Below are positions 46,470 to 62,146 of a stretch of DNA of 64,000 nt, piece by piece (position 1 is the stretch's first letter; every line of letters starts with the position of its first letter). The stretch lies in NCBI GenBank assembly GCA_902614395.1, contig CACMKW010000002.1, positions 3,356-67,355 on the forward strand, in the 5' to 3' direction. A program made the position numbers and the translations under genes. Below the pieces are notes generated by a model that ran no database searches, was not told where the DNA came from, and worked only from the letters and a program-made list of their open reading frames with translations. Source of the stretch: an uncultured Alphaproteobacteria bacterium (GTDB taxonomy: Bacteria > Pseudomonadota > Alphaproteobacteria > HIMB59 > GCA-002718135).

Positions 46470-47942
46470 ATGTCTGAAATTCAAACCTACAAATTTTATG
46501 CAGGAAATAAATGGCATGACCCTTCTTCTGAAAAATATTTTGAAAGTGAGGATCCATCTATAGGTAAAGTATGGGCAAGGGTCCCTGAATGTAATGAAAA
46601 AGATATTAATCTTGCAGTATCATCTGCTAAACATGCTTATTATGATGGTCCTTATGGTAAAATGCATCCAGCAGAAAGAGGGAGAACTTTAACTAGAATT
46701 GGAGATATTATTGCTAAAAATGCAGAACGCATTGGACAGATAGAAACTAAAGACAACGGCAAACTACCAAAAAATATCACTCCTTCTTTAACCAGCTGGC
46801 AGACTGAGAGTTTTTATTATTATGCAGGCATGTGTGACAAGTATGAAGGTAGATTGATACCTTCAGAGGTTCCAAATATGCATAATTATTTAAAATGGGA
46901 ACCATTTGGAGTTGTTGCACTTATTCTTCCTTGGAACTCACCAATTGGAACATTGATCTGGAAATTAGCGCCGGCAATAGCTGCAGGCAATACAGTTGTA
47001 ATTAAACCATCAGAAAGAGCATCGTGCTCTACATTAGAGTTAATGAAAATTCTAGAAGAAGCCGATCTTCCAGAAGGTTTGATTAATGTTGTTACTGGTT
47101 TTGGTCCTACCACTGGTGCACCTCTTATTGAACACCAAGATGTTAGAATGATAAGTTTTACAGGTGGAACAAAAGGGGGAAGTGCAGCGAGTTTAAGTGC
47201 ATCCAAAAATGTTAAACCCATTATTATGGAGTTAGGTGGTAAATCACCACAAATTATATTCAAAGATGCTGATTTAACTTTATCAGTTAATGGAGTTGTG
47301 TCGGGCATATTTCCAGTTTCAGGCCATAGTTGTATTTCAGGATCAAGGATACTAGTGCATAAAGATATAAAAGATAAATTTACTCATAATTTATTAGAAG
47401 TTGTTAAAAAGGCTAAAGTTGGTCACCCAAATGATACTGCAACACAAATAGGGCCAATAGCAAATAAAGAGCAATATGATTTTATTTTATCTAAAATAGA
47501 AGCGGCCGAAAAAAGAGGTTTAAAATTATTAATTGATGGAAGAAAAGAACAAAAATCTGAAGGGTACTATATTGGACCAACTATTTTTGATAATGTTCCA
47601 AATGAAGACGATTTAGCTCAAAATGAAGTATTTGGACCTGTAGCCTCAATACAAACTTGGGAGGATGAAGATGAAGTAATTAAAATTGCAAACGATACTA
47701 TTTATGGACTTGCAGCAGGAATTTGGACTAATGATACTAATAAAGCTATACGTTTAGCGGATAAGATAGAAGCTGGAACTGTTTATATAAATAATTATTT
47801 TAATGCTTCTACCCAATCACCAGTTGGAGGTTTCAAGCAATCAGGATACGGTCGTGAAAATGGATGGGAGGGAATGCAAAGTTATATGCAGACCAAATCT
47901 ACATGGTTAGCAACTAATCCCTCCCAACCAGATCCATTTTAA
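46470..47942 (+). CDS. NAD(P)+ aldehyde dehydrogenase
   Basis: FTGGTKGG, ELGGKSP, catalytic SGHSCISGSR, NEVFGPV. Confidence 0.9.
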   Translation: MSEIQTYKFYAGNKWHDPSSEKYFESEDPSIGKVWARVPECNEKDINLAVSSAKHAYYDGPYGKMHPAERGRTLTRIGDIIAKNAERIGQIETKDNGKLPKNITPSLTSWQTESFYYYAGMCDKYEGRLIPSEVPNMHNYLKWEPFGVVALILPWNSPIGTLIWKLAPAIAAGNTVVIKPSERASCSTLELMKILEEADLPEGLINVVTGFGPTTGAPLIEHQDVRMISFTGGTKGGSAASLSASKNVKPIIMELGGKSPQIIFKDADLTLSVNGVVSGIFPVSGHSCISGSRILVHKDIKDKFTHNLLEVVKKAKVGHPNDTATQIGPIANKEQYDFILSKIEAAEKRGLKLLIDGRKEQKSEGYYIGPTIFDNVPNEDDLAQNEVFGPVASIQTWEDEDEVIKIANDTIYGLAAGIWTNDTNKAIRLADKIEAGTVYINNYFNASTQSPVGGFKQSGYGRENGWEGMQSYMQTKSTWLATNPSQPDPF

Positions 47943-48883: not shown

Positions 48884-49675
48884 TTATTCTTTCCAATTTG
48901 GTTCTCGTTTTTCTAAAAAGGCATCAATGCCTTCCTTAGAATCATCATGTAACATATTTTCTGTCATTACTTTTGAAGTAAAAGTATAGGCGTCTTCTAA
49001 ATTCATTTCTTTTTGTTTGTAAAAAGCTTCTTTACCAATTTTTATAGTATTAGAAGATTTAGAAGATATTTTTTTAGCAATTTGAAATACATTTTCTTTT
49101 AAACTTTCTTCTTCAAAGACATCATTTATTAAACCAATCCTTAATGCTTTATTTGCATCTATAAGATCTCCAGTGAGAAGCATTTCCATTGCTTGCTTTT
49201 TACCTACAGTTCTTGATAATGGAACCATTGGTGTAGAACAAAATAATCCAATATTAACACCAGGAGTTGCATATTTTGCTCTACTACTTGAGTAAGCTAA
49301 ATCACAGCTAGAAATTAACTGACAGCCTGCTGCAGTAGCGATACCATCAACCATAGCTATAACTGGTTTATTATTTTTATTAATTTTCAGCATAAGTTGA
49401 GAGCACATTTGAAATATTTTTTTAAAATAGCTTTCACCTTTATCATTTTGCAATCTTTGTGAATTTAAATCTTTTAAATTATGTCCTGCACAAAAAATAT
49501 TACCTTTTGATGATAAAATAATTACTTTTACTTCATTATCTTTATCAGCAATGTCTAGAGCTGATGTTAATTCATTGATCATCTTTTCGCTTAAAGTATT
49601 TTGGTTTTTCTGGTCATTAAGAATAATATAAAAAATATTATTATTTTTTTCAGTTAAAATTAGATTAAAATTCAT
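48884..49675 (-). CDS. Enoyl-CoA hydratase/isomerase (crotonase) family protein
   Basis: FCAGHNLKDL oxyanion-hole segment and DGIATAAGCQLISSCDL. Confidence 0.85.
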   Translation of the reverse strand: MNFNLILTEKNNNIFYIILNDQKNQNTLSEKMINELTSALDIADKDNEVKVIILSSKGNIFCAGHNLKDLNSQRLQNDKGESYFKKIFQMCSQLMLKINKNNKPVIAMVDGIATAAGCQLISSCDLAYSSSRAKYATPGVNIGLFCSTPMVPLSRTVGKKQAMEMLLTGDLIDANKALRIGLINDVFEEESLKENVFQIAKKISSKSSNTIKIGKEAFYKQKEMNLEDAYTFTSKVMTENMLHDDSKEGIDAFLEKREPNWKE

Positions 49676-50122
49676 TTAATTAATTTGAATTTCAACATCT
49701 TTAGACAGGGAATTAGCGATAAAACAATACTTATGTGATCTCTCTTTCATCTTTTTCATTTCTTCATCAGAAATATTAAAGTTATCTTCGAATACTATAG
49801 TTGGATTTAGCTCTATTTTGTTGACGTACATTCTTCCCTCTGCATTTTTTCCTAAATACGAAATTGCTTTATCTTTGTAATTAATAACTGGCCATTTCAT
49901 TTTTGCAGCTAAAGCTAAAAACGTCATCATAAAACAACTACTTACAGCTGCAGCTAGTTTTTGCTCTGGATTAATATTAGTTTCGCTTCCTCCATAATCT
50001 GGAGATGATCCTGCATCAATAGATACATTTTTGTTAAGCATTACTGTGTGATCAGTTAAGTATTTTCCAAATTCGAGTTTTTGATTTCCTAATTCCCACT
50101 TTAATTCGATTGAATGACTCAT
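49676..50122 (-). CDS. OsmC/Ohr family protein
   Basis: NPEQKLAAAVSSCFMMTFLALA and HKYCFIANS carry the two family cysteines. Start placed at ATG 50122 (MSHSIELK), 1 nt after the upstream stop; the track's longer ORF would overlap the upstream gene. Confidence 0.8.
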   Translation of the reverse strand: MSHSIELKWELGNQKLEFGKYLTDHTVMLNKNVSIDAGSSPDYGGSETNINPEQKLAAAVSSCFMMTFLALAAKMKWPVINYKDKAISYLGKNAEGRMYVNKIELNPTIVFEDNFNISDEEMKKMKERSHKYCFIANSLSKDVEIQIN

Positions 50123-50123
50123 T

Positions 50124-51245
50124 TTAAGAATAATTAAAAGGTAGTGAGCACACTTTACCTTTTCTCTCAATATTGTCTGGTGTTAATACGATAACATCCT
50201 GCCCATCATTCCAATAATCTCTATCAACCATTGATAGCCCAATATTAGTTTTTAAAAATGGTGAATAAATACCAGAAGTAATATTACCAATTTGAAATCT
50301 ATTTTTTGAGTATAAAGGAAAAGGTATTGTGCATGGGGGAGTCGGGGACCCATCAAAGGTAATTCCTTTTATTTTTTTTTCTATTCCATTTTTTAATATT
50401 TTTTTTAGTGCATTTTTTCCAATGAAATCATGAGATAAATTGTTACAATAATTATCAAATCCACATTCAATTGGATTATTTTCTAAAGTAAATTCATTAC
50501 CATATGATAATAAACCACCTTCTATTCTATCAATTAAATTTGGACATCCTGGAGAAATATTAAAATCTTTTCCTGCTTCCCAAATAGTTTCCCAAAGTTT
50601 TTTTCCTAAACTAAAACCTTTAAGATAAATCTCAAAACCATCTTGTTTGCTATATCCTGATCTTGCAATTATCTGCTTTGTTCCTTCAAATTCAAAAAAA
50701 GAAAAATGAAAGAATTTTAGTTTTTTAATTTTTTCTCCAAATATTGTTGACATTAATTCTTCAGATTTTGGACCTTGAATTGCTAGAGGGTAAATATCTG
50801 GCTCTATAATATTAACTTCAAAATTTCTACCTACAGCTAATCCTTTTGCCCAAAGAAGAACATCTGAGTCTGCAACTGATAGCCAATATTTATTTTCACT
50901 TAACTTTAAAAGTACAGGATCATTTATCATCCCTGCATTTTCATCAATCATTGGATAATAGTAACATTTACCAATAGGCATATCTTTTATTGATCTTGGA
51001 GACATGAGTTGTATTAATTTTGTAGCATCTTCTCCTATTATTTGAACCTGTCGTTGACATGAAACATCCCAAATTTGAGTATTTTTAGATAAGTGCCAAT
51101 AATCTTCTTCTACTGTCGCTTTAAATGATTTTGGAAGAAGCATATGATTAACTACAGTAAAACCACTTACGCCAGCCTCAATTACTTTCTCGGTATAGGG
51201 AGTCCTCCTAATACGTCTGGACATGTTTAATCCTGAATTACTCAT
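50124..51245 (-). CDS. Aminomethyltransferase (GcvT) family protein, DmdA-like (stand-alone THF-dependent demethylase type)
   Basis: SRRIRRTPYT ... NHMLLP ... IWDVSCQRQVQI ... IQGPKS ... ARSGYSKQDGFEIYL ... RIEGGLLSYG. Start placed at ATG 51245 (MSNSGLN), 1 nt after the upstream stop. Confidence 0.85.
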   Translation of the reverse strand: MSNSGLNMSRRIRRTPYTEKVIEAGVSGFTVVNHMLLPKSFKATVEEDYWHLSKNTQIWDVSCQRQVQIIGEDATKLIQLMSPRSIKDMPIGKCYYYPMIDENAGMINDPVLLKLSENKYWLSVADSDVLLWAKGLAVGRNFEVNIIEPDIYPLAIQGPKSEELMSTIFGEKIKKLKFFHFSFFEFEGTKQIIARSGYSKQDGFEIYLKGFSLGKKLWETIWEAGKDFNISPGCPNLIDRIEGGLLSYGNEFTLENNPIECGFDNYCNNLSHDFIGKNALKKILKNGIEKKIKGITFDGSPTPPCTIPFPLYSKNRFQIGNITSGIYSPFLKTNIGLSMVDRDYWNDGQDVIVLTPDNIERKGKVCSLPFNYS

Positions 51246-51246
51246 T

Positions 51247-51582
51247 TTATTTTGACCACCATATTGAGTATCCATTTGGAGAAACAATTAAAGGTATGTG
51301 ATATTTTTTAAGAGGATCTTTCATTTTAAATTTAACACTGATTGAATTAATTATTTCACTAGTATTTCTAAAATATTTACCAGAATTAATTATCATTTCA
51401 TAATCACTTTCACAATCTTCTTTCGTTAAATCAAATTCTTTAAGCATTCTTCCAGAACTATCTGTTTTATCTTCTAGAAATACGACTTTGTTATTATTAT
51501 TTACTTTATAAATAACAATTTCTACATCACTTGCATGCGTACCATCTATTGAGTTTAGTAAATGTGTAGAAAAAATTGCCAT
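51247..51582 (-). CDS. Transthyretin-like / 5-hydroxyisourate-hydrolase-fold protein with atypical C-terminus
   Basis: 111 aa. STHLLNSIDGTHA and YHIPLIVSPNGYS follow the HIUase pattern, but the protein ends ...YSIWWSK rather than the ...YSTYRGS I recall for HIU hydrolases. Confidence 0.75.
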   Translation of the reverse strand: MAIFSTHLLNSIDGTHASDVEIVIYKVNNNNKVVFLEDKTDSSGRMLKEFDLTKEDCESDYEMIINSGKYFRNTSEIINSISVKFKMKDPLKKYHIPLIVSPNGYSIWWSK

Positions 51583-51585
51583 AAC

Positions 51586-53328
51586 CTACTCTATAGACGC
51601 TTTATCTCTTTTATCACTAACTGCAGCAACTATTGGACTTATAACACCTTTAGCCTTAACATTTACACATGCAGTTTTACCACTTTCTAACGCTCTTTTT
51701 AAAGCAGGGCCTAAATCTTCTCTTTTAGTAACTAATTCGCCATGTCCTCCAAAGCCCTCAAAAATTGAATGAAATGGAATATCTCTAAAATCAGTTGCAA
51801 AGTGTTTCCCACTTTCAAACAACCTTTCTTGTTGTTGAGAAATACAGTCAAGACCTCCATTGTTATCGATAACTACAACAATAGGTTTTTTTTCTTGAAA
51901 TGCAGCTTCAATTGATAATCCGCCAGATAAAAATGCACCATCTCCACTTATTAAAACAACATTAGATTTAGGATTAAGATTTTTCGCTGATACTGCAAAA
52001 GGAACTCCAACACCTAACATACTAAAAGTGCCTGGATGTAATATTCCTCCAAGTTTTTTGCCTTTTGATCCAGCAATATTAATTGCAATCTCAGACCAGA
52101 AATGTGTGTTTCCACCATCAATAACTAACCAATCATTTTCAGTTAATACTTCTTGAACATCTAAAGCTAACTGAAGAGGATGAATTTTTCCACCTTCTTT
52201 TTTAGCCTCTTCAGTTTCTTTATTTAAATCATCTAATGTTTTATCAATCCAATTTTTTTTCTCTTTTTTATTCTTATCAAACCATTCATTATTTAATTTC
52301 CATTTATTAATTTTTTTTAATTCTACGAGTTTATCCAAAAAGACTCCAGGATCACAAAGTAAATTAATATCTGCAGCTCTATTTAATTCTATTTCTTCAT
52401 GTGATCCATTAATACAAACAAGCTTTGTACTTTTTGGAAAAAGTGGAGGATTACCAAAATTCATTTGATTATCAAGACGTGCACCAATCATAAGAACCAA
52501 ATCTGATTCATTAAGAGCCTTTTTTGATGGAGGATATTGATGAATATCTGCAAGACCCATATATGTATCTGCCTCTTCACCTAAAAGTTTTTGGTGGTAT
52601 GGTATATTAAATATTGGAATATTTAATTCAAACCCAGCTTGCTCTAATTTTTTTTCTGCATTGGACCACCAAACACCATGCCCTCCAATAAAAACAGGTT
52701 TTTGAGCACTAATTGCAAGATCAAATATCTCATTTAAACTCTCAGGATCGGGCCAAGCTTTGGCTAAAGGTTTTTTTTGTTGAGTAAATGGTCTTTCTTC
52801 TAAACCTGCATCATCTTCAAATGATGAAAACATTATATCTACTGGCACACTTAAATGTACTGCACCTGGATAACCATTTGTTGCAATTCTATAAGCTTTA
52901 TCTACGAACTCTCTTATTCTATTGCCATCTGTTATACTGGCACTGTATTTTGTTAAAGGTGCTGCAATAGATACATCATCTATTTCCTTAAAACCGCCTG
53001 CTCCTTGTCTTTTTAAGCTACTAGATCCAGTAATAAAAATAACAGGTGATCTTTCACCCCAAGCTTCCATCATTGAGGGTACTGCATTTGCAAAACCTTC
53101 TGGTCCCACAATGCAAACAGATGGTTTCCTTGATATTCTTGTGTGACCATCTGCTAAATGACCAGCAATTTGTTCATGAGGACAATTAATTACATTAATT
53201 TGACACTCCATAAATCCTTCAAGTGCTGGATTACAAAAACCTCCTGAAAGTGTAAAAACATTATCAATACCTTTGTCTTTAAGAGCTCTTGCAACTAATG
53301 CTCCACCTCTAATCTTTTTATCTCCCAT
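51586..53328 (-). CDS. Thiamine-diphosphate-dependent enzyme (acetolactate synthase / oxalyl-CoA decarboxylase / 2-hydroxyacyl-CoA lyase-like)
   Basis: N-terminal GGALVARALKDKGIDNVFTLSGG, GPEGFANAVP, GGFKEID, and ThDP motif GDGAF...(x)...NNGG. Confidence 0.85.
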   Translation of the reverse strand: MGDKKIRGGALVARALKDKGIDNVFTLSGGFCNPALEGFMECQINVINCPHEQIAGHLADGHTRISRKPSVCIVGPEGFANAVPSMMEAWGERSPVIFITGSSSLKRQGAGGFKEIDDVSIAAPLTKYSASITDGNRIREFVDKAYRIATNGYPGAVHLSVPVDIMFSSFEDDAGLEERPFTQQKKPLAKAWPDPESLNEIFDLAISAQKPVFIGGHGVWWSNAEKKLEQAGFELNIPIFNIPYHQKLLGEEADTYMGLADIHQYPPSKKALNESDLVLMIGARLDNQMNFGNPPLFPKSTKLVCINGSHEEIELNRAADINLLCDPGVFLDKLVELKKINKWKLNNEWFDKNKKEKKNWIDKTLDDLNKETEEAKKEGGKIHPLQLALDVQEVLTENDWLVIDGGNTHFWSEIAINIAGSKGKKLGGILHPGTFSMLGVGVPFAVSAKNLNPKSNVVLISGDGAFLSGGLSIEAAFQEKKPIVVVIDNNGGLDCISQQQERLFESGKHFATDFRDIPFHSIFEGFGGHGELVTKREDLGPALKRALESGKTACVNVKAKGVISPIVAAVSDKRDKASIE

Positions 53329-53329
53329 C

Positions 53330-54493
53330 TTAATACTTTATATCCTTAAAAAATTTCTCTGCTATAATTTTTTTATCAACTTCATTTATATCGGTTAATC
53401 CCACTAAGCCAAGATTTGTACTTAACTCTTCTTTAATAAGGTTAATGATTCTTCTAAGACCTCTTGCACCATCTGCTCCAATAGCATACATTAAAGGTCT
53501 GCCAAACATCACAAAGTTAGCTCCCAGAGCTAATGCTCGTAAAATATCACTACCACTTCTAATGCCACTATCAAAAAGTATTGGAAAATCATCTCCCAAA
53601 GCTTTTCGTATTAATGGCAAAGCATTAATAGAAGCAGTAGCACTATCTAATTGCCTTCCACCATGATTTGATACTTGAATTGCATCAACACCAGCCTCTT
53701 TAATTTTCAAAGCATCTTCAGAATTCATTACGCCTTTGATTATTAATTTTCCTTTCCAAGCGTCTCGAACTCTTTTTAGAGTACTCCAATCAGTTGCTCC
53801 TCTACTTTCTTTTCGTCTAAAAATTTGATCACCACTTTTAGAGGTAATATAATTCATTGGTTGTGGAGCGCCTTTAAACAAAGTTGTTAAACTCCATTGA
53901 GGATGTAGTGCAAAATCTAAAAATTGTTTTGGACCAATTTTAAATGGATAACCAAAGCCATTTCTATCATCTCTAGCTCTTCTTGAAAGAATTGGAACAT
54001 CAACAGTGAGGATCAAAACCTTGTATCCAATACTTTCTGCTCTTTTCAATAATTCCATAATAAATTCTTCACTTTGAAAAATATATATTTGCATCCACGA
54101 ATGACCTTTTGAAAAAGTAAACATATCTTCTAGTGTAGTACTAGAAGCCATTGAAACACATGTTGGAATATTATTATACGCACTTTCTTTTGCTATCATT
54201 TTATCTGCATCAGGCCATGAAAGATTTGTCATTCCCATTGGAGCAAATCCAAATGGATAATCAAAATGAAAATCAAATATTTTTTTTCTTAAATTTCTAT
54301 TCTCAACATTTCTAAAAACCTTAGGCTCAAGTCTAATTTGATCTAATGCAGTACTATTAATTTCTGCAAGTTTATCATCTCCTGATGCTCCATCAATAAA
54401 ATCAAAGACTAATTTTGGTAATCTTTTTTTAGATAATCTTATTGCATCATCAATTGTGTGAATTTTTGTGCTGGGTTTAATGAGATCATTCAT
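53330..54493 (-). CDS. FMN-dependent alpha-hydroxy acid oxidase/dehydrogenase (LldD/glycolate oxidase family)
   Basis: GVDAIQVSNHGGRQLD and DSGIRSGSDILRALALGANFVMFGRP. Confidence 0.9.
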   Translation of the reverse strand: MNDLIKPSTKIHTIDDAIRLSKKRLPKLVFDFIDGASGDDKLAEINSTALDQIRLEPKVFRNVENRNLRKKIFDFHFDYPFGFAPMGMTNLSWPDADKMIAKESAYNNIPTCVSMASSTTLEDMFTFSKGHSWMQIYIFQSEEFIMELLKRAESIGYKVLILTVDVPILSRRARDDRNGFGYPFKIGPKQFLDFALHPQWSLTTLFKGAPQPMNYITSKSGDQIFRRKESRGATDWSTLKRVRDAWKGKLIIKGVMNSEDALKIKEAGVDAIQVSNHGGRQLDSATASINALPLIRKALGDDFPILFDSGIRSGSDILRALALGANFVMFGRPLMYAIGADGARGLRRIINLIKEELSTNLGLVGLTDINEVDKKIIAEKFFKDIKY

Positions 54494-54541
54494 TTTAATA
54501 TTTGTATTCTAATATAATTTATAATTCTATTACAAAATATA

Positions 54542-55771
54542 TTAGTTTTTTGAAATACCCTTCCAAGGTATTGGACTGGGTGGAATATCTTCTTTTAAAC
54601 CTCTCTGTATTTCACCTTTCTCATCATACATTGGTAAAGTGCAGATTTCACCTTTTTGCAAACTACCATCATCACAGCTGACATCTACTATTGTGCCTGG
54701 TCCAAATTCTACATGGTTCATATGAACTATAGCAACACCACAAACTTGAAATGGCGACCATGTACTTGAAGTTACAATGCCTACTTTTCTATTATTAATA
54801 GAAATTTCAGAATCAACTAAAGCAAAACTATTTTCTACTCTCATACCCCAAGTTAAACAATCTTTACTGGCATTAAGTAAATATTCTCTTCCAATGAAAT
54901 CTCCTTTATTAAAATCTATAAATTTTCCTAATCCAACAGCAAATGGAGATCTATCCCTCGTAAAATCTCTCCCTGCAGACAAAAGGCCTGCCTCAATTCT
55001 TCTACATCTAAATCCTGGTGATGCTGTTAAGATCATTCCCATTTCTTCACCTTTACTTAATATTAAGTCCCCAATTTTTTTTGAATCATTTTGTGGTCTT
55101 AAATAAATTTCCCAACCTAGTTCATTTGTAAACCCTGTTCTACTTATAATTACTTTTTCTGAAGCAATTGAAGTTTCAATCCAATCAAAGTAATTAAAAT
55201 TATTTTTTAATGGTTGATCAATTAGTTTTTCTAACAGTTTTAGAGATTTAGGTCCTTGTATTTGGCTTACCCAAACATTTGGATCTTTAATTTCAATATC
55301 TAAATTTTTCGAATGAGCTTTGTACCAACTATATAAATGTCCATCACCTTGAGCAAACCAAAATTTATTTTTTTCTAATCTTAATAACAATCCATCTGAA
55401 ATCATTCCTCCATCATGGTAGCATGCAAATTGATAGGAGCATCTTCCAATTTTTACTTTTGAAATATCTCTAGGAAATATTTGTTGAAGTAAATTTTCAG
55501 CATCCGGACCAGAGATTTCGTATGGATGTTCACCCGTATGACGTAAGATTATTTCTTGTCTAGCTTTCCAATACATTTCATCTGCTGTAGCATGAGACAA
55601 TTTTTCAAGTGTAAATCTTCCATCAGCGTAGTTAGTATATTCTGGGTTGAGTGGTAACTCCTGATAAGTAAGAGGATGTATTTTCATGGGTCTAGCCAAA
55701 TCCAGAGATCTGCCACTTTCTTTAATAACTGGCTTTACAACAAATCTGTAATTACTAACTAAATCTCCCAT
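54542..55771 (-). CDS. Aminomethyltransferase (GcvT) family protein, second divergent paralog
   Basis: EISGPDAENLLQQIFPRD, IQGPKSLKLLEKL, SRTGFTNELGWEIYL, RIEAGLLSAG. Confidence 0.85.
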   Translation of the reverse strand: MGDLVSNYRFVVKPVIKESGRSLDLARPMKIHPLTYQELPLNPEYTNYADGRFTLEKLSHATADEMYWKARQEIILRHTGEHPYEISGPDAENLLQQIFPRDISKVKIGRCSYQFACYHDGGMISDGLLLRLEKNKFWFAQGDGHLYSWYKAHSKNLDIEIKDPNVWVSQIQGPKSLKLLEKLIDQPLKNNFNYFDWIETSIASEKVIISRTGFTNELGWEIYLRPQNDSKKIGDLILSKGEEMGMILTASPGFRCRRIEAGLLSAGRDFTRDRSPFAVGLGKFIDFNKGDFIGREYLLNASKDCLTWGMRVENSFALVDSEISINNRKVGIVTSSTWSPFQVCGVAIVHMNHVEFGPGTIVDVSCDDGSLQKGEICTLPMYDEKGEIQRGLKEDIPPSPIPWKGISKN

Positions 55772-55812
55772 AAAATATATTCAACTTATCACAAAATAAT
55801 TAAAAAAAAATT

Positions 55813-56736
55813 TTAAAATAAATTCTTAATAGCTTCAATATGTCGTGGCTTTACTTCACAGCATCCACCAACTAGAGTAACACCTTCATTTAAAGATTTT
55901 AAAACAAACTTTTTATATTTATCTTCTCCAAATTGTTCTTTCCTAGTGCCAAGTAACTCAACGGGATCAATATAATCATAATGTCCTTCAAAACCCTCTG
56001 AATTGAATTTTTCTTTACTACTAGTAGGCAGTTCTTTAAATAAATTCATCTTATAACCAAAAGGAAGCTTTTGTTTATTAAATATAGGAATACTCAAATT
56101 AACAATTTCAGGTGATACGCAGGCTGATACTATGCCGCAACAATTAAATTTTTGTATAGTTTCAAAAAGTTCTTCAAGACTTTCTCCAGATGGTAATTTT
56201 CCATCATAACGTAAGTGCACACCTACAAGAACTTGTTTATTAAATTCTTTTGTAGCTTCTAAAGCAATTTTTATTTCTTTGATGGAACACAAAACATCTA
56301 AGTAAAATATATCGACGTAATCTTTTAATATTATTGCAATTTCATGAAAATAATTAAACATGGTTTCATCGGTTTCAAAATGTATTGGGGAATATGTATT
56401 ACCTTGATTTGGCAATGAGCCTGCAATAATAACTTTTTTTTTACTTTCATTTTTTGCTTTTAATGCAAGTGCTCCAGCAGATCTTATTCCAAATTCAAAT
56501 TTATCAAGTAAATTATATTTTTTTAGTAGCCTTCTTCTAACACTAAAATTTGAAGTGACTATTAATTGTGATCCCGCATTTATAAAATTTTTATGCATTT
56601 CTACGACCATTGGGTGATTATTTTCATTTAATAAAGCTTGTGCTGACCAAAGATCACCTGTTGTCTCCAAACCCATTTCCATTAAAGTTTGACCGGAACC
56701 TCCATCAAAGAGGTATTTCTTATTTTTTAAAAACAT
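55813..56736 (-). CDS. Homocysteine S-methyltransferase domain protein (BHMT/MmuM-like)
   Basis: FDGGSGQTLMEMG N-terminus. Zn-ligand cysteines in SACVSPE and VGGCCEVKPRHI. Confidence 0.8.
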   Translation of the reverse strand: MFLKNKKYLFDGGSGQTLMEMGLETTGDLWSAQALLNENNHPMVVEMHKNFINAGSQLIVTSNFSVRRRLLKKYNLLDKFEFGIRSAGALALKAKNESKKKVIIAGSLPNQGNTYSPIHFETDETMFNYFHEIAIILKDYVDIFYLDVLCSIKEIKIALEATKEFNKQVLVGVHLRYDGKLPSGESLEELFETIQKFNCCGIVSACVSPEIVNLSIPIFNKQKLPFGYKMNLFKELPTSSKEKFNSEGFEGHYDYIDPVELLGTRKEQFGEDKYKKFVLKSLNEGVTLVGGCCEVKPRHIEAIKNLF

Positions 56737-56761
56737 TTTTTTGGGAGATTAGTTGAAGTAA

Positions 56762-56785
56762 TGTGGCGCATTTGAATGCGCCACA
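56762..56785 (-). terminator. GC-rich stem-loop between the binding-protein gene and downstream enzyme genes (attenuator / mRNA 3'-end stabiliser candidate)
   Basis: tgtggcgca-tttgaa-tgcgccaca is a perfect inverted repeat of 9-11 bp, 16 nt downstream of the SBP stop. No clear U-tract follows on the minus strand, so it is not a textbook intrinsic terminator. Confidence 0.4.
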
Positions 56786-56800
56786 AAGAAAATTAAAATT

Positions 56801-58429
56801 TTATGCAAACCACCAACGTTCAGAAAGTTTGTTACCGTCACTTTCCCAGTTACCAGCAACATCTTCACCGTGAGCAAGTTTTTTAGAACCAGCACCAACG
56901 TATTGGTTAAATGCATAAACAATTGCACCACCATCGTAGTTACAAAGAGCTTGTGCTTCCCAGTACATTGATTTTCTTTTTTCTGCATCAAGTTCTGATC
57001 TAGCAGATCTAACAAGTTCATTGAAACGAACAGTTGAATCAGTTTGAACTAGATTACCCCAAGCAGCTTCGTTCCATTCTGTGTCATCTGTGAATGCAGC
57101 AGACCACATCATATCTTCTGTAGGTCTTCCACCCCAAGAACTCATACTGAAACCCTTAGTGTTCCATACGTTACTCCAGTAACCATCTTCAGGTTCTTTT
57201 TTAACTCGAAGATCGATACCACATTCTTGAGCAGATGCTGCTATCAAGTTAGTTGCATCTGTACATCCTGCATAAGGAACTTCAGAAGTACTAATTTCAA
57301 TTGGTCCACTTACTCCAGATTTTTTCCAGTGATAAGCAGCTTTATCAGCATCGAACTCTCTCTGCTCTAAAGCGCTATTATGGTATGGGTGAGCAGTAGA
57401 GATCGGATGATCATTACCAACAGTTCCATATCCAAGCATAATCTTATCAACAATTTCCTGTCTTTTAATTGCAAACTTCATTGCCATACGCACATCAAAG
57501 TTATCAAACGGTGGAACGTTCAATCTCATTGGAGCTGTATAGTGAGCGTAACCAGAAGCTGCTGTAATTTCTACACTAGGATTTCTAGTCAATAGATTAG
57601 CAGTTCTAAGATCAACACCATTCATCCAGTCAATTTCACCGTTTAATAATGCTGCTTGTCTAGTAGCAGGATCATTAATACCAATTACTTCAACTGAATC
57701 AAAGTGTGCAACACTATCACCTTTGAAATAATTTGGATTTCTTTTTCCAAATTTTGCACCAACACCAGGATTGAATTCATCCATAATATATGGACCAGTT
57801 CCGATCGTTGATTGAGCATCAACAACTCCATCTTTTGTTGGTTTGATCATAATGTGATAGTCAGTAGTTATTGCAGGCCAATCGGCATTTGCACCTTTTA
57901 GCTTAAAAATAACTCTGTCATTTCCATCAGCAGAAACTGTTTCAATTTGAGATAACAGTCCACCTGCTGCCGAAGCAGTATCTGGATTCATATGATACTG
58001 ATAGTTGAGCACAACATCTTCTGCTGTCATTGATTTACCATTATGGAATTCAACTCCTTTGCGAAGATTATATACCCAAGTTTGAGCATCATCTGATTCA
58101 ATTGACTCAGCAAGCTCTCCAACAATTGTGTGATCTGAATCAACAACAGTTAGACAGTTCTGATATGACCAAGCAGTAGCTTGCATAAATGAACTCTGAT
58201 AAGTTGCTGGATCAAGAGTATCAGTTGCATCTGCTGCACTATTACCCCATCTTAAATGTCCACCTTTTTTTGGTGTAGCTGCAACTGCTTTATCTGCTAA
58301 TGATAATGCAATTGGGAGCGTGACCCCAGTAGCAAGGACAGACATCATGAACTGTCTTCTATCAATAAGCCCTTTTGTTAGCTTTGAAGACTGTTCTTCA
58401 ATGTATTTGTCTATTTTCTTATTTTTCAT
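56801..58429 (-). CDS. ABC transporter substrate-binding protein, family 5 (peptide/opine/nickel type), twin-arginine signal
   Basis: Start placed at ATG 58429 (MKNKKIDKY), preceded by AGGGAGGA 4-5 nt upstream. DRRQFMMSVLATG...ADKAVA is a Tat-like signal. The mature part has the SBP_5 layout. Confidence 0.9.
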   Translation of the reverse strand: MKNKKIDKYIEEQSSKLTKGLIDRRQFMMSVLATGVTLPIALSLADKAVAATPKKGGHLRWGNSAADATDTLDPATYQSSFMQATAWSYQNCLTVVDSDHTIVGELAESIESDDAQTWVYNLRKGVEFHNGKSMTAEDVVLNYQYHMNPDTASAAGGLLSQIETVSADGNDRVIFKLKGANADWPAITTDYHIMIKPTKDGVVDAQSTIGTGPYIMDEFNPGVGAKFGKRNPNYFKGDSVAHFDSVEVIGINDPATRQAALLNGEIDWMNGVDLRTANLLTRNPSVEITAASGYAHYTAPMRLNVPPFDNFDVRMAMKFAIKRQEIVDKIMLGYGTVGNDHPISTAHPYHNSALEQREFDADKAAYHWKKSGVSGPIEISTSEVPYAGCTDATNLIAASAQECGIDLRVKKEPEDGYWSNVWNTKGFSMSSWGGRPTEDMMWSAAFTDDTEWNEAAWGNLVQTDSTVRFNELVRSARSELDAEKRKSMYWEAQALCNYDGGAIVYAFNQYVGAGSKKLAHGEDVAGNWESDGNKLSERWWFA

Positions 58430-58663: not shown

Positions 58664-59629
58664 TTGTTAAGGCTTAGCCTTGGTCTCGTTACGGTTTTTG
58701 CATTTTCGGTAATAATATTTAGTACATTCTCTTTTTTACCGGGAGACTTTGCCACAGAAATATTAGGTCAAAGTGCAACAAAATCTGCAGTAAAAGCCCT
58801 AAGAGCAGAATTGGGTTTAGATAAACCTCCGGTAACAAGATATTTTGATTGGTTAGGAAATGTTTTTCAAGGAGATTTTGGTAGTTCTTTCTCTGGAAGA
58901 TCTAAAGTTCAAGGGGATCAAGGTGATAGGTCTAGAGAAGTTGTTGGTTTAATTGTCCCTAGATTAAAGAATACATTATTTTTAACAGGGGTTGCCGCCA
59001 TGTTGGCTATTCCTCTATCTTTAATCTTAGGTATCTCAGCAGCATTATACAGAAACTCTTATTATGATAGGTCAGCAACTGGAGTTAGCTTAGTAACCGT
59101 ATCTTCACCAGAATTTTTTACAGCCTATATTTTTATTCTTTTACTAGCGACACTGTTCCCAGTTTTTCCAACTATTTCTAATGTGGATGAAGCTTCAACT
59201 TTGGCTGAAAGATTTTACAGGACTGCTCTTCCAGTTTTTACTTTGACATTAATTACTATGGGTCACATGATGAGAATGACAAGGTCAGCTATTATAAATA
59301 TCTTATCTAGTGAATATATTGAAATGGCAAAATTATCGGGAGCTTCTAGATACGAGGTAATTGTTAAACACGCACTTCCAAATGCTTGGGCACCTATTTC
59401 TCAAGTAATTGCAATAAACTTAGCTTATATGTTGATTGGTTCAGTTGTTGTTGAATATGTTTTTAACTATCAAGGTATTGGTAGGTTGATGGTCGGATCA
59501 GTCTATAATCGAGATTTACCGGTTGTTCAAGCTTGTGCATTAATTTTTGCATCAACATATGTAATATTAAATTTAATTGCTGACTTGATCGGAATTATTT
59601 CTAACCCAAGGTTGCTATATCCAAAATGA
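58664..59629 (+). CDS. ABC transporter permease (DppB/OppB-like)
   Basis: PGDF...LGLDKP N-terminal region and an EAA-loop-type segment (SEYIEMAKLSGASRYEVIVKHALPNA). The listed start is TTG; the frame is open from 58607, and an SD-preceded ATT at 58631 may be the true start (see findings). Confidence 0.9.
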   Translation: MLRLSLGLVTVFAFSVIIFSTFSFLPGDFATEILGQSATKSAVKALRAELGLDKPPVTRYFDWLGNVFQGDFGSSFSGRSKVQGDQGDRSREVVGLIVPRLKNTLFLTGVAAMLAIPLSLILGISAALYRNSYYDRSATGVSLVTVSSPEFFTAYIFILLLATLFPVFPTISNVDEASTLAERFYRTALPVFTLTLITMGHMMRMTRSAIINILSSEYIEMAKLSGASRYEVIVKHALPNAWAPISQVIAINLAYMLIGSVVVEYVFNYQGIGRLMVGSVYNRDLPVVQACALIFASTYVILNLIADLIGIISNPRLLYPK

Positions 59630-60546
59630 GCGAAAATTTATCTTATTCTGCAAAAAGTGAAGTTGCAAATTTAATTAAAAGAAGAACTAGATTAGAAAGA
59701 TTAAAAATTGCCTTATCAAAAGCTCCAATCTCAGCTTGGTTTGGTATGATTGTACTATTTATATATTTTTTTGCTGCAATATTTGCTCCCTTAATTGCTC
59801 CACATGGAGAAGCAGAAATATTCCCAGTAGCTTATGCTCCTTGGGGTGATGGCCATATATTTGGTACTGATCAAATTGGGAGAGATATTTTTTCTCGCAT
59901 TATCTATGCTGCAAGAAATACAATTGGTATTTGTTTATTGGCTACTTTTATTGCTTTAGGAATTGGAACAGTATTTGGAATTATAGCTGCTCTGGATAGA
60001 AGATATTTAGATCAGCTATTGAGTAGAATAGTAGACACGCTTATGGCTATACCTGTAATGATTTTTACTTTTATACTTTTATCAGTTTTTGGACCTACTA
60101 ATTTTAATTTAATTGTCATTTTAGGAATTTTGGAGTCAACTAGATTTTTTAGAATATCAAGATCAGTTGCTGTTGGTCAAGTTGTTCTAGAATATGTAGA
60201 GGTCGCGAGATTAAGAGGTGAAAATTTATCATATATTATTTTCAGAGAAATACTTCCTAATATAGCTTCACCTTTGATTATTGAGTTTGGTTTAAGGTTC
60301 ATATTTATAATTTTTACAATATCTAGTTTAAGTTTTTTAGGAATTGGCATTCAACCCCCTTCAGCAGATTGGGCATCAATGGTGAGGGAAAATGCAATAC
60401 TTATTCAATATGCGCAATATGATATAACAGCAGGTTTAACACCATTAATTCCAGCTGCTGCAATTGCTTTACTTTGTGTATCAATTAATTTTGTTGTTGA
60501 TTGGTATCTTTACATTACTAGCGGATTAAAAGATGACGTTAAATAA
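59626..60546 (+). CDS. ABC transporter permease (DppC/OppC-like)
   Basis: GTDQIGRDIFSRIIYAARN and EYVEVARLRGENLSYIIFREILPN. 4-nt overlap with the upstream permease. Confidence 0.9.
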   Translation: MSENLSYSAKSEVANLIKRRTRLERLKIALSKAPISAWFGMIVLFIYFFAAIFAPLIAPHGEAEIFPVAYAPWGDGHIFGTDQIGRDIFSRIIYAARNTIGICLLATFIALGIGTVFGIIAALDRRYLDQLLSRIVDTLMAIPVMIFTFILLSVFGPTNFNLIVILGILESTRFFRISRSVAVGQVVLEYVEVARLRGENLSYIIFREILPNIASPLIIEFGLRFIFIIFTISSLSFLGIGIQPPSADWASMVRENAILIQYAQYDITAGLTPLIPAAAIALLCVSINFVVDWYLYITSGLKDDVK

Positions 60547-62146
60547 ATCAAAAGAACTCCTGCTTGAAATGAAAAATATCCATATTGATGGATTTTCAGA
60601 TGAGAGATGGCATAAAATTTTAAAAGGTGTAGATTTGACTTTACACAGAGGAGAAATACTAGGATTAATTGGAGAGAGTGGAGCCGGAAAATCTACTATG
60701 GGTAAAGCTGCAATGGGCTATACCCAACCAGGTTGTAAGATTGTAAAGGGAGAAATTAATTTTAATGGAATAGACCTTGCTAAACTAACTGAATTTGAAA
60801 AGAGAAAAATTTGGGGAACTAAAATATCTTATGTTGCTCAATCAGCAGCAGCATCTTTTAATCCTGCTCATAGATTAATGGACCAAACAATAAGTGCTGC
60901 TAATAGATTAAAGATAAATCCAACGGATGTATTAAAAAAAGATGCAGTTCAACTTTATGAATCACTACAGCTTCCAGATGCTGAAAATATAGGAGATAGA
61001 TACCCGCATCAAGTATCTGGAGGACAACTACAAAGAATAATGACTGCAATGGCTATGTCCCCAAGACCAGAGTTAATTATATTTGATGAGCCCACAACAG
61101 CTTTAGATGTAACAACTCAAGTTGAAGTATTATCTGCTATGAGATCTATAGTAGATAAATTTAATACAGCAGCAATATATATTACTCATGATTTAGCCGT
61201 AGTTGCGCAAATGGCTGATAGAATAAAAGTTTTGCGATACGGTGAAGAAGTTGAAGAAGCTGAAACAAGAGATATGCTATCAAACCCAAAAGAAGAATAC
61301 ACCAAATCTCTGTGGTCAGTAAGATCACTGATCAAGCCTGAAGAAACAAATAAAGATTATATGTTGTCTATTAAAAATATTGATGCAGCATATGGCTCAT
61401 CAAAGGTCTTACACAATGTTTCTATAAATATTCCTAAAGGTAAAACAGTAGCTATAGTTGGTGAAAGTGGATCAGGAAAATCAACAACAGCAAGAGTAAT
61501 TACAGGCTTACTTCCTCAATTAAAAGGAGAAATAATTTTTGATGGAAAAAAATTGTCTCCAAAACTTGAGCAAAGGTCAAAAGAAGAATTAAGAAGAATT
61601 CAAATAATTTTTCAAATGCCTGATACTGCAATGAACCCCCGTCAAACTGTTGATGAAATAATAGGAAGGCCAATAGAATTTTATCAAGGTATAAAAGGTA
61701 AAAAAAGAGAAGCAAAAGTTATTGAATTATTAAAAATGATTGAGCTAGATGAAAATTTTTTAGATAGATTACCATCCGAATTATCTGGAGGTCAAAAACA
61801 GAGAATATGCATTGCAAGAGCTTTAGCGGCTAACCCAGATTTAATTATTTGTGATGAAGTGACATCAGCACTAGATCAAATTGTTCAAGAAGGAATATTA
61901 AAATTACTCCAAAAATTACAAAAAGAGCTTGGTGTAACTTATATTTTTATTACTCATGATATAGCAACAGTTAAAGCAATCTCAGATGAAATAGTTGTTA
62001 TGTATCAAGGTGAGGTAGTGGAACAGGGTTTGAAAAGTAAAATTTTAAATCCACCATATCCTGATTATACAGAACTTTTATTGTCTTCAGTCCCAGAAAT
62101 GGATCCTGATTGGCTAACCAATCTTCTGAATAAAAGATCTTCCTAG
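60533..62146 (+). CDS. ABC transporter ATP-binding protein with two fused ATPase domains (DppD-DppF type)
   Basis: Two Walker A motifs (GESGAGKST, GESGSGKST), two signature motifs (VSGGQLQR, LSGGQKQR) and two Walker B motifs (LIIFDEPT, LIICDEVT). Confidence 0.9.
   Translation: MTLNKSKELLLEMKNIHIDGFSDERWHKILKGVDLTLHRGEILGLIGESGAGKSTMGKAAMGYTQPGCKIVKGEINFNGIDLAKLTEFEKRKIWGTKISYVAQSAAASFNPAHRLMDQTISAANRLKINPTDVLKKDAVQLYESLQLPDAENIGDRYPHQVSGGQLQRIMTAMAMSPRPELIIFDEPTTALDVTTQVEVLSAMRSIVDKFNTAAIYITHDLAVVAQMADRIKVLRYGEEVEEAETRDMLSNPKEEYTKSLWSVRSLIKPEETNKDYMLSIKNIDAAYGSSKVLHNVSINIPKGKTVAIVGESGSGKSTTARVITGLLPQLKGEIIFDGKKLSPKLEQRSKEELRRIQIIFQMPDTAMNPRQTVDEIIGRPIEFYQGIKGKKREAKVIELLKMIELDENFLDRLPSELSGGQKQRICIARALAANPDLIICDEVTSALDQIVQEGILKLLQKLQKELGVTYIFITHDIATVKAISDEIVVMYQGEVVEQGLKSKILNPPYPDYTELLLSSVPEMDPDWLTNLLNKRSS

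Follow-up and report, generated by a model that had tools for sequence, protein, structure and literature searches.

SAR11 bacteria are the ocean's most abundant bacteria and the largest consumers of dimethylsulfoniopropionate (DMSP) and related algal osmolytes, and they rely on algal osmolytes for reduced sulfur, methionine and one-carbon (C1) units. The described systems closest to the locus studied here are the DMSP pathway of Pelagibacter and Ruegeria (DmdA-DmdB-DmdC-DmdD/AcuH), the Roseobacter SlcD-ComDE-Xsc route, the catabolism of glycine betaine by BHMT and DMGDH/SARDH, and the carnitine clusters of Rhizobium johnstonii pRL10 and Limimaricola variabilis. Our study concerns a run of nine minus-strand genes at 48884-58429 of a 64,000-nt stretch of contig CACMKW010000002.1 (the window, to which all coordinates refer). 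Three methyl-transfer genes stand there together with genes for a flavin mononucleotide (FMN)-dependent 2-hydroxy-acid dehydrogenase, a thiamine diphosphate (ThDP) enzyme and a transthyretin (TTR)-like protein.

Our analysis suggests, tentatively and with a probability somewhat short of even, that the genes form a catabolic module, specific to SAR11, for the breakdown of a small methylated onium osmolyte that carries or yields a 2-hydroxy acid, and a sulfonium compound is more likely than an ammonium compound. This reading is favoured because the genomic contexts of relatives of its genes agree, independently of one another, on the catabolism of small charged or methylated osmolytes, and because of the precedent for an FMN/ThDP enzyme pair, the family of the DmdA paralog (DmdA2) and the chemistry of the homocysteine S-methyltransferase family. 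The contexts of the transporter's relatives, the FMN/ThDP precedent and the finding that neither GcvT paralog is a glycine-cleavage T protein also support in part the pathway for a methylated hydroxy acid that a preliminary description of this DNA had proposed, but its nine-gene unit and its link to DmdD were not supported, and gene spacing proved uninformative. Clusters for the demethylation and catabolism of osmolytes are a familiar kind, whereas this combination of genes and three of its enzymes are unfamiliar; searches of an accessible literature library found no published description of the cluster, of the ThDP subfamily or of the TTR-like protein with its Trp-Trp (WW) C-terminus.

Gene content and conservation of the locus

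Families were assigned with Pfam and subfamilies with the equivalog cutoffs of NCBIfam. The nine consecutive genes are as follows, in their order on the minus strand.

56801..58429 (longer open reading frame (ORF) start 58525), minus strand: SBP5a, family-5 binding protein with a twin-arginine translocation (Tat) signal (PF00496, 228 bits)
55813..56736, minus strand: HMT, homocysteine S-methyltransferase family (PF02574, 138 bits)
54542..55771, minus strand: GcvT1, stand-alone aminomethyltransferase-family protein with an N-terminal extension of ~55 residues (GCV_T); conserved core
53330..54493, minus strand: FMN_dh, FMN-dependent 2-hydroxy-acid dehydrogenase of the mandelate-dehydrogenase/SlcD type (PF01070, 396 bits); conserved core
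51586..53328, minus strand: ThDP enzyme, orphan with three TPP_enzyme domains (HEQ and GDG...NN motifs read directly); conserved core
51247..51582, minus strand: TTR-like protein of the transthyretin/5-hydroxyisourate hydrolase (HIUase) fold (PF00576, 70 bits); conserved core
50124..51245, minus strand: DmdA2 (NF009133, the DmdA equivalog, 537.4 bits against a cutoff of 410); conserved core
49676..50122, minus strand: OsmC/Ohr-family thiol peroxidase-like protein (PF02566, 60 bits); lineage-specific
48884..49675, minus strand: ECH, crotonase-family enoyl-CoA hydratase, ECHDC3-like (PF00378, 203 bits); lineage-specific

The ORF listing bears out this order as first described, the gaps of 64, 41, 48, 1, 3, 1, 1 and 0 nt were reproduced exactly with the ATG starts chosen then, and Pfam agrees with the family given to each of the nine genes (SBP_bac_5, S-methyl_trans, GCV_T twice, TPP_enzyme three times in one protein, FMN_dh, Transthyretin, OsmC and ECH_1). 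The guanine-cytosine (GC) content of the window is 18-35% and the closest relatives of its proteins are found in Pelagibacteraceae single-cell and isolate genomes; the source is a low-GC SAR11/Pelagibacteraceae genome.

Conservation of the cluster was surveyed in species-representative genomes (one genome per species) with the ThDP protein as query, which found at least 583 stretches with a relative, and the best 80 loci were analysed. GcvT1, FMN_dh, the ThDP enzyme, the TTR-like protein and DmdA2 keep their order in all 80, wherever the contig reaches. Only these five genes recur across lineages, so that the nine genes cannot be treated as the single unit originally claimed; the others, namely HMT, OsmC, the crotonase and the type of transporter, are confined to particular lineages. 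In the lineage of the window (L007-L045) the core is accompanied by a short-chain dehydrogenase/reductase (SDR) gene, ATP-binding cassette (ABC) importer genes, SBP5a and HMT upstream and by OsmC and ECH downstream, with a convergent aldehyde dehydrogenase (ALDH) and a glucose-methanol-choline (GMC) oxidoreductase beyond ECH. In the other Pelagibacteraceae loci, L046-L086 except L067, FadB and ABC genes share one strand with the gene for another family-5 binding protein (30% identical), and the second strand carries GcvT1, an S51 peptidase, FMN_dh, ThDP, TTR, DmdA2, a thiolase in place of the crotonase and often a class-IV aminotransferase. The ThDP enzyme is the most conserved gene of the cluster and under unusually strong constraint, being 82-87% identical across SAR11 lineages where its neighbours are 48-74% identical. 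As gene order decays fast between Pelagibacter species, with a Jaccard index of ~10% at 85% average nucleotide identity (preprint 10.64898/2026.04.03.716430), the persistence of this core amid changing flanks carries some weight.

A third arrangement was observed in L067, an 8.9-kb contig of a metagenome-assembled genome labelled Rhodobacterales, where the gene for a binding protein 51% identical to that of the window is followed directly by FMN_dh-ThDP-TTR-DmdA2, GcvT1 being absent from between them. With a ThDP protein 83% identical to those of SAR11, this contig probably bears the wrong label.

The gap pattern, which had been stated for the presumed operon, was given no weight. The median gap at the 46 co-directional junctions of the window is 0 nt, 43 of them are no longer than 64 nt, and predicted operons hold 87% of genes in a survey of 135 complete Pelagibacter genomes (preprint 10.64898/2026.04.03.716430); spacing is uninformative here because tight packing is usual in the window and in Pelagibacter genomes. 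The genes may be co-transcribed. A promoter and terminator scan was equally uninformative, its counts equalling those of shuffled controls in this AT-rich DNA. A SAM-V type element is known upstream of bhmT/osmC in HTCC1062 and served as the model for a search of the window, in which Rfam found no riboswitch or other RNA element at the gathering threshold, nor any for 48.5-59 kb at E <= 1. The two antisense ORFs at 46886-47308 (minus strand) and 54777-55106 (plus strand), of 109-140 residues and inside the ALDH and GcvT1 genes, are most likely due to chance.

Tight packing is also what would be expected if the locus were a mosaic, in which independent functions have been brought together by genome streamlining and adjacency is kept by descent. 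Its units would be the uptake and demethylation of a methyl donor (ABC genes, HMT and GcvT1), a 2-hydroxy-acid unit (FMN_dh, ThDP and TTR) and an isozyme of DMSP demethylase (DmdA2), which in the lineage of the window stands beside OsmC and a hydratase that might serve the route from DMSP through methylmercaptopropionate (MMPA). We regard this explanation, the main rival of the onium module, as unlikely, albeit with a substantial chance of being correct. It is kept alive because conserved Pelagibacter blocks can join unrelated functions, the largest of them uniting sdh, asd, dmdA, leuBDC and ribosomal genes (preprint 10.64898/2026.04.03.716430). It also accords with the differences between lineages in transporter type, HMT, S51 peptidase, thiolase, OsmC and ECH, and with the position of DmdA2 above the DmdA equivalog cutoff; and because SAR11 lacks DmdD (PMC5069961), an additional hydratase beside a dmdA copy would need no further explanation. 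However, FMN_dh-ThDP-TTR-DmdA2 stays intact while both flanks change, with GcvT1 always upstream, and all five core genes belong to orphan or paralogous families that are restricted to, or centred on, the same genomes. A mosaic is further disfavoured by invariant subfamily-specific features carried by the FMN enzyme, the ThDP enzyme and the TTR-like protein, and by relatives of three genes, whose surroundings each independently indicate the catabolism of methylated or charged small molecules.

Proposed methyl transfer and oxidation of a 2-hydroxy acid

The second GcvT paralog had been called DmdA-like, which gives the family correctly but understates the match, since DmdA2 scores above the DmdA equivalog cutoff, although its relation to the biochemically validated enzyme is that of a paralog. 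Its best match in the PDB is P. ubique DmdA (3TFH) at 404 bits, and the DmdA2 of the module in a Pelagibacter isolate scores 397 bits against the same 369-residue protein. By BLASTP, DmdA2 is 42.6-51.6% identical to 118 canonical SAR11 DmdA sequences, whereas identity within the DmdA2 clade is at least 61% and within the canonical clade at least 74%. These comparisons place DmdA2 as a paralog forming its own clade, outside the canonical one (SAR11_0246/3TFH). Canonical dmdA stands apart from this cluster, in the block leuCDB-dmdC-dmdB-hydrolase-dmdA-asd-sdh (L087), and genomes hold 1-3 dmdA copies (preprint 10.64898/2026.04.03.716430). As first reported, DmdB and DmdC are absent: tblastn of the 64-kb window returned no homolog of either, and DmdA2 is accordingly not linked there to dmdB (coenzyme A (CoA) ligase) or dmdC (acyl-CoA dehydrogenase). 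A score above the equivalog cutoff, together with ~49% identity to canonical DmdA, points to a sulfonium compound as the methyl donor.

Neither GcvT paralog is the glycine cleavage system's T protein, as had been implied from the outset; on TIGR00528 GcvT1 scores 104.5 bits and DmdA2 132.1 bits against a cutoff of 235.85, and that identity was ruled out on this score. The best NCBIfam matches of GcvT1 also lie below their cutoffs, namely the C-domain of Tdm, the trimethylamine N-oxide demethylase (180 bits against 1100), and DmdA (174.9 bits against 410). GcvT1 is 62-66% identical in the Pelagibacter loci. Homologs that are 56.6% identical occur on Phaeobacter and Tritonibacter plasmids, where they adjoin a gene for a GlxA-family regulator and an ALDH that is 54-55% identical to the second ALDH of the window (39098-40528). 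Among the members of the GlxA family are GbdR, CdhR and other proteins that control the breakdown of betaine and carnitine. GcvT1 and the ALDH at 39098-40528 may belong together, because their plasmid counterparts adjoin one another.

HMT falls well below the equivalog cutoffs of BHMT (NF005718, 82.6 bits against 338), MmuM (NF007020, 89.2 bits against 215) and YitJ. Its GGCC motif aligns with that of MetH, and a further Cys upstream can be read from the sequence. Among the 80 loci, HMT occurs in the lineage of the window and otherwise only in L046 and L047 (47% identity). By analogy, it may be an onium-compound:homocysteine methyltransferase making methionine. It would supply methionine because members of the HMT family can use such donors, Bmt making methionine directly from DMSP or betaine in vitro (PMC12366255), and because SAR11 has neither MetE nor MetH (PMC12478193). 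Taken together, the family membership of the three enzymes suggests that methyl groups would be passed to homocysteine by HMT, yielding methionine, and to tetrahydrofolate by DmdA2 and GcvT1.

A patch of divergence was observed in this part of the locus. In L026, L030, L035, L039 and L040, SBP5a and the ThDP enzyme are 96-100% identical to those of the window while HMT is 67-75% and GcvT1 79-93% identical, and this local divergence against 54542-56736 would fit recombination or allelic replacement with its centre at HMT.

The FMN enzyme belongs to the 2-hydroxy-acid oxidase family (PF01070) to which it had been assigned, but its features point to a dehydrogenase instead of an oxidase. It lies below the cutoffs of the LldD models, and alignment to full-length mandelate dehydrogenase (MDH, 6BFG) shows a long loop and an HPQW motif as in the mandelate-dehydrogenase type. 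This type points to a membrane-associated, quinone-linked dehydrogenase rather than an oxidase forming H2O2. The catalytic His/Arg motif NHGGRQ is present in 74/74 orthologs and W.Q.Y is kept, whereas the Tyr that binds the substrate carboxylate (Tyr26 of MDH, Tyr24 of glycolate oxidase (GOX)) is replaced by Phe in 74/74, within the motif DF[IVL]DG; MDH, lactate oxidase (LOX) and the SlcD-type proteins all have Tyr at this position. The family and the catalytic residues fit an SlcD/mandelate-dehydrogenase-type enzyme that would convert a 2-hydroxy acid into the 2-oxo acid.

Outside SAR11, the proteins most similar to the FMN enzyme (49.5% identity) are encoded by the last gene of Roseobacter clusters for 2,3-dihydroxypropane-1-sulfonate (DHPS), directly after comDE, a position that corresponds to SlcD of the published pathway (PMC11131964). 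ComDE is a ThDP-dependent sulfopyruvate decarboxylase. The pairing of oxidase and ThDP enzyme had been taken to imply a sequence from 2-hydroxy acid to 2-oxo acid to decarboxylation, and for this the adjoining SlcD-type and ComDE genes provide a precedent by analogy, on which the orphan ThDP enzyme would decarboxylate or cleave the 2-oxo acid. The same neighbourhood raises the alternative, a special case of the mosaic, that the module contains the sulfolactate branch of DHPS degradation, with the FMN enzyme as an SlcD ortholog and the ThDP enzyme as a non-orthologous replacement of ComDE feeding Xsc. SAR11 expresses DHPS genes and has Xsc without ComDE (PMC11131964 and its supplement), which would suit this alternative. 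However, the window holds no homolog of HpsN or ComD/ComE, on which ground the DHPS pathway was rejected, and its SDR matches to HpsO are weak (27-29%). The invariant Phe stands against the Tyr of SlcD-type proteins, and the ThDP enzyme scores on Xsc models no better than on many others. Moreover, the SAR11 strains credited with a suggested DHPS pathway (PMC11131964) have SlcD matches of just 27-31% and would therefore manage without the FMN gene of the module. We consider a sulfolactate branch very unlikely.

The ThDP enzyme falls below every NCBIfam equivalog, the best being PRK05858 (273 bits against 587), with HACL (241/600), ALS (231/538), OXC (204/557) and Xsc (191/620) behind it. Its best matches in the PDB, at 193 bits, are 2-hydroxyacyl-CoA lyase and oxalyl-CoA decarboxylase, and a glyoxylate carboligase/glycolate route for the FMN and ThDP enzymes was dismissed at only ~98 bits against Gcl structures. 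A comparison with 1.8 billion representatives at 50% identity gave just two outside clusters more than 34% identical to it (48% and 36%), both from organisms with 63-66% GC. The 36%-identical relative sits in a cluster with OpuAC and a GMC oxidoreductase. The 48%-identical relative lies on metagenome contigs of 63% GC (L004/L005), between an SDR and a 4HBT thioesterase and followed by a split transketolase-like pair; the genes upstream of it are PrpD-like, ALDH and SDR, families also represented near the cluster of the window. As a variant of the decarboxylation proposed above, the ThDP enzyme may act in the manner of Xsc on an onium aldehyde or oxo acid, releasing dimethyl sulfide or trimethylamine.

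The TTR-like protein scores 70.2 bits on the HIUase equivalog TIGR02962, below its cutoff of 87.45. Its C-terminus reads WWSK, with WW[SP]x in 80 orthologs and YRGS absent, and His7, Gly-Arg45, YH.P and the C-terminal WW are invariant in these 80. Plasmids carry only ordinary uraH/hiuH genes, whose products are ~33% identical to it. A true HIUase of purine catabolism was discarded on the sub-cutoff score, the WWSK end and the absence of purine genes nearby. Both the ThDP enzyme and the TTR-like protein are classed as orphan subfamilies. The latter could be an accessory enzyme or a subunit, and one may speculate that its Trp-Trp C-terminus contacts the onium head group.

The importer and flanking genes

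The binding-protein gene faces three divergently transcribed genes, which Pfam identifies, in agreement with the preliminary description, as two permeases and a fused double ATPase at 58664-62146.

58664..59629, plus strand: ABC permease 1, DppB/OppB type (BPD_transp_1 and BPD_transp_1_N), divergent from the binding-protein gene
59626..60546, plus strand: ABC permease 2, DppC/OppC type (BPD_transp_1 and OppC_N)
60533..62146, plus strand: fused double ATPase of an ABC importer (two ABC_tran and oligo_HPY)

A signal for export of SBP5a by the Tat system, as first claimed, is readable in its sequence as the twin-arginine motif DRRQFM, a hydrophobic stretch and then AVA, and the twin-arginine motif is common to all four plasmid homologs. 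SBP5a fails the equivalogs of OppA, DppA, NikA and GsiB type (oligopeptide, dipeptide, nickel and glutathione), with at most 106 bits against cutoffs of 393-1098, and its best PDB match is 86 bits. Orthologs of the whole system occur on alphaproteobacterial plasmids, with 42-51% identity for SBP5a, 48-58% for permease 1 (Ruegeria, Mesorhizobium, Limimaricola and R. johnstonii), 46-59% for permease 2 and 55-71% for the ATPase. Of the four contexts examined, two are clusters for carnitine catabolism, where the SBP5a homologs are 42-44% identical: that of R. johnstonii pRL10 holds a GlxA regulator, BKACE, carnitine 3-dehydrogenase and carnitinyl-CoA dehydratase, and that of Limimaricola holds BKACE and carnitine 3-dehydrogenase. 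The remaining homologs (48-51% identity) adjoin MttB-family or Rieske genes; in Ruegeria hydantoinase genes adjoin the transporter, and nearby are a gene for a D-2-hydroxy-acid dehydrogenase and a convergent one for an MttB-family methyltransferase.

Because the whole ABC system is orthologous to the transporters of carnitine clusters, a methylated hydroxy acid is a likelier ligand of SBP5a than a peptide, and by this analogy the ligand is likely to be an onium (carnitine-like) carboxylate. Conserved residues were of no help in naming it, as the invariant Trp residues also occur in the non-orthologous binding protein of Pelagibacter and are not diagnostic. In the lineage of the window, these genomic contexts suggest that the osmolyte would be taken up by a Tat-exported family-5 ABC system resembling carnitine transporters. 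The transporter type is specific to the lineage and is not conserved with the core.

The carnitine clusters suggest a substrate with quaternary nitrogen, that is, a hydroxy acid of the carnitine/gamma-butyrobetaine type, as one form of the proposed onium module. HMT would then act on the quaternary nitrogen like BHMT, the GcvT proteins would capture later C1 units and the crotonase would be CaiD-like. Besides the transporter homologs, this form would accommodate the GlxA-family regulator gene beside GcvT1 orthologs, a gamma-butyrobetaine-dioxygenase/TmpA-like gene 7 kb away (322 bits against 415) and the carnitine metabolism genes of offshore SAR11 genera (PMC12636525). However, the window has no homolog of carnitine dehydrogenase or BKACE, and a route through these enzymes was rejected on that ground. 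The crotonase is just 26% identical to the carnitinyl-CoA dehydratase of pRL10, carnitine is a 3-hydroxy and not a 2-hydroxy acid, and the likeness of DmdA2 to DmdA points to sulfur. To our knowledge, no GcvT-family enzyme takes a methyl group directly from quaternary nitrogen, which also counts against this form, and its probability is low. The homarine operon (homABCDER) was set aside because its families are unrelated.

OsmC has two Cys residues (SSCF and KYCF, read from the sequence) and, among the 80 loci, is restricted to L007-L045; another osmC is co-located with bhmT in HTCC1062 (PMC5069961). The crotonase had been linked to DmdD through their common family. It is indeed a member of the crotonase superfamily but is ECHDC3-like, passing NF006008 (370 bits against 313) with human ECHDC3 (2VX2, 234 bits) as its best PDB match, and identity with DmdD was not supported, as no methylthioacryloyl-CoA hydratase chain is among its PDB matches at E <= 1e-25. 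Two convergent neighbours lie outside the nine genes.

46470-47942, plus strand: ALDH resembling betaine aldehyde dehydrogenase (BADH), 458 bits against 669
44783-46420, plus strand: GMC oxidoreductase resembling choline dehydrogenase, 517 bits against 605 (NCBIfam)

This pair adjoins the crotonase gene in every locus of the window lineage that is long enough, and may be functionally linked to the nine genes. Onium-type genes around the locus thus comprise a BBOX/TmpA-like dioxygenase, two BADH-like ALDHs and the choline-dehydrogenase-like GMC oxidoreductase.

Among named substrates, the leading candidate by analogy is 4-dimethylsulfonio-2-hydroxybutyrate (DMSHB), which would make the proposed onium module a sulfonium pathway. 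The preliminary description had put this compound forward, and it is compatible with the observations. After import, DMSHB would be oxidized by the FMN enzyme to 4-dimethylsulfonio-2-oxobutyrate, converted by the ThDP enzyme to DMSP-aldehyde and by the adjacent BADH-like ALDH to DMSP, and demethylated by DmdA2 to MMPA, a scheme in which the reaction order is paralleled by the gene order FMN_dh, ThDP, (TTR), DmdA2, (OsmC), ECH. Alternatively, demethylation would come first and the resulting methylthio-hydroxybutyrate would be oxidized to the oxo acid and transaminated to methionine. The ALDH beside the cluster in the window lineage and the class-IV aminotransferase that follows the module in many Pelagibacter loci would provide for the oxidation of the aldehyde and for the transamination, respectively. 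DMSHB is a known natural sulfonium 2-hydroxy acid and perhaps a prominent one in seawater; its conversion to DMSP is a widespread activity, for which most organisms have no identified decarboxylating enzyme outside the DsyD domain (PMC11306096). The dependence of SAR11 on reduced organic sulfur (PMC5069961) would also suit such a substrate. Against this, the ThDP enzyme has acyl-CoA lyases as its closest relatives of known structure and does not belong to the 2-oxo-acid decarboxylase type, Phe replaces the Tyr that normally binds the substrate carboxylate, and the scheme has no role for the TTR-like protein or GcvT1. In literature searches, DMSHB was found together with SAR11 or Pelagibacter only in one general DMSP review. 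We consider a DMSHB pathway improbable, and just as doubtful is the broader proposal that GcvT1 and the core FMN_dh-ThDP-TTR-DmdA2 make up a SAR11 pathway, so far undescribed, by which a sulfonium 2-hydroxy acid of the DMSHB kind is broken down.

Several observations weigh against the onium 2-hydroxy-acid module that we favour. The ThDP enzyme resembles CoA-dependent lyases as much as decarboxylases, and a CoA ligase is absent; the TTR-like protein has no assignable role in the pathway; and DmdA2 may simply be a second DMSP demethylase unlinked to the hydroxy-acid enzymes. The transporter changes between lineages while the core stays. In the Pelagibacter loci SBP5a is replaced by a family-5 protein with a Sec-type signal, only ~30% identical and adjoined by the S51 peptidase gene, which suggests dipeptides, and we know of no family-5 binding protein that binds an onium compound. 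Adjacency is itself weak evidence in these genomes, because conserved Pelagibacter blocks mix unrelated functions, as in sdh-asd-dmdA-leuBDC. Finally, HIMB5, HIMB114, HIMB59 and P. giovannonii give SlcD matches of only 27-31% and probably lack the module, and isolates of the HTCC1062 type also appear to be without it. The isolates HIMB1695, HIMB1709 and Uisw_090 carry it.

The wider surroundings of the cluster contain further genes of related kinds. The dioxygenase-like gene lies at 40530-41669 (minus strand), resembles gamma-butyrobetaine dioxygenase (322 bits against 415) and 2-trimethylaminoethylphosphonate dioxygenase (287 bits against 400), and stands tail-to-tail with the BADH-like ALDH at 39098-40528, one base away. 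The segment 42582-48879 encodes a PrpD/MmgE-family protein, a 272-residue protein with a weak hotdog-dehydratase match, the GMC and ALDH pair and a membrane protein of the fatty-acid-hydroxylase family; the gene for the last is present in only some loci of the lineage, L012, L018, L022 and L025 for example, which are identical in all else. Nearly all genes of positions 1-37800 are on the plus strand, and the GC content of 18-28% is below that of the rest of the window. They encode glycosyltransferases, an EpsG-type polymerase, asparagine synthase, UDP-glucose dehydrogenase, an aminotransferase and several ORFs that have no Pfam match, and the segment looks like a SAR11 hypervariable island for cell-surface polysaccharide. 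The osmolyte genes start right at its border, and a class-V aminotransferase resembling cysteine desulfurase (37772-39019; TIGR01976, 316 bits against 352) lies between the two.

Significance and comparison with described systems

The module is widespread, relatives of its ThDP enzyme being encoded in at least 583 stretches of the species-representative genomes, and its dmdA paralog is counted as DMSP demethylase in gene-based surveys. If the module handles a compound other than DMSP, such as DMSHB or a different hydroxy acid of the sulfonium or betaine type, it would represent a new flux in the marine sulfur and carbon cycle, and environmental dmdA counts would change in meaning, since a whole clade would belong to this pathway and not to plain DMSP demethylation. 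In that case, the FMN dehydrogenase and the ThDP enzyme could also supply the long-sought chemistry from DMSHB to DMSP ('DDC') by a route unrelated to DsyD. If the locus is a mosaic, it would be a useful warning on how operons are read in streamlined genomes.

In comparison with the DMSP pathway, the locus likewise encodes a stand-alone DmdA-family protein of the GcvT fold, with a crotonase gene two genes downstream of DmdA2. However, DmdA2 is paralogous to DmdA, DmdB and DmdC are missing from the window, the crotonase is ECHDC3-like, and the FMN, ThDP and TTR-like proteins have no counterpart in that pathway. The Roseobacter SlcD-ComDE-Xsc system has in common with the locus an SlcD-type FMN gene directly adjoining a ThDP gene, the two FMN enzymes being 49.5% identical. 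It differs in that the ThDP partner in SAR11 is a three-domain protein of 580 residues, unrelated to the split ComD/ComE; HpsN, HpsP and a tripartite ATP-independent periplasmic (TRAP) transporter are absent here, Tyr has become Phe and the pair is linked to methyltransferases. The TTR-like protein keeps the fold and the His/Arg/His positions of HIUase, but YRGS has given way to the invariant WW[SP]x, the score is below the cutoff and no genes of purine catabolism are nearby.

The carnitine clusters of R. johnstonii pRL10 and L. variabilis possess an orthologous family-5 importer (binding protein 42-44% and ATPase 55-59% identical), pRL10 includes a crotonase-family gene, and their substrate is an onium hydroxy acid. 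In contrast, the window lacks the carnitine 3-dehydrogenase, BKACE, acyl-CoA dehydrogenase and CoA ligase and has methyltransferases, the FMN dehydrogenase and the ThDP enzyme. With regard to glycine-betaine catabolism, including osmC-bhmT-ordL of SAR11, the HMT of the window is far below the BHMT cutoff, its GcvT proteins are not fused to a flavoprotein, and neither a SAM-V riboswitch nor another Rfam element accompanies the genes. The likeness to this system lies in the co-location of HMT-family, GcvT-fold and OsmC-like genes and, as we propose for the locus, in the harvesting of methyl groups for methionine and the C1 pool.

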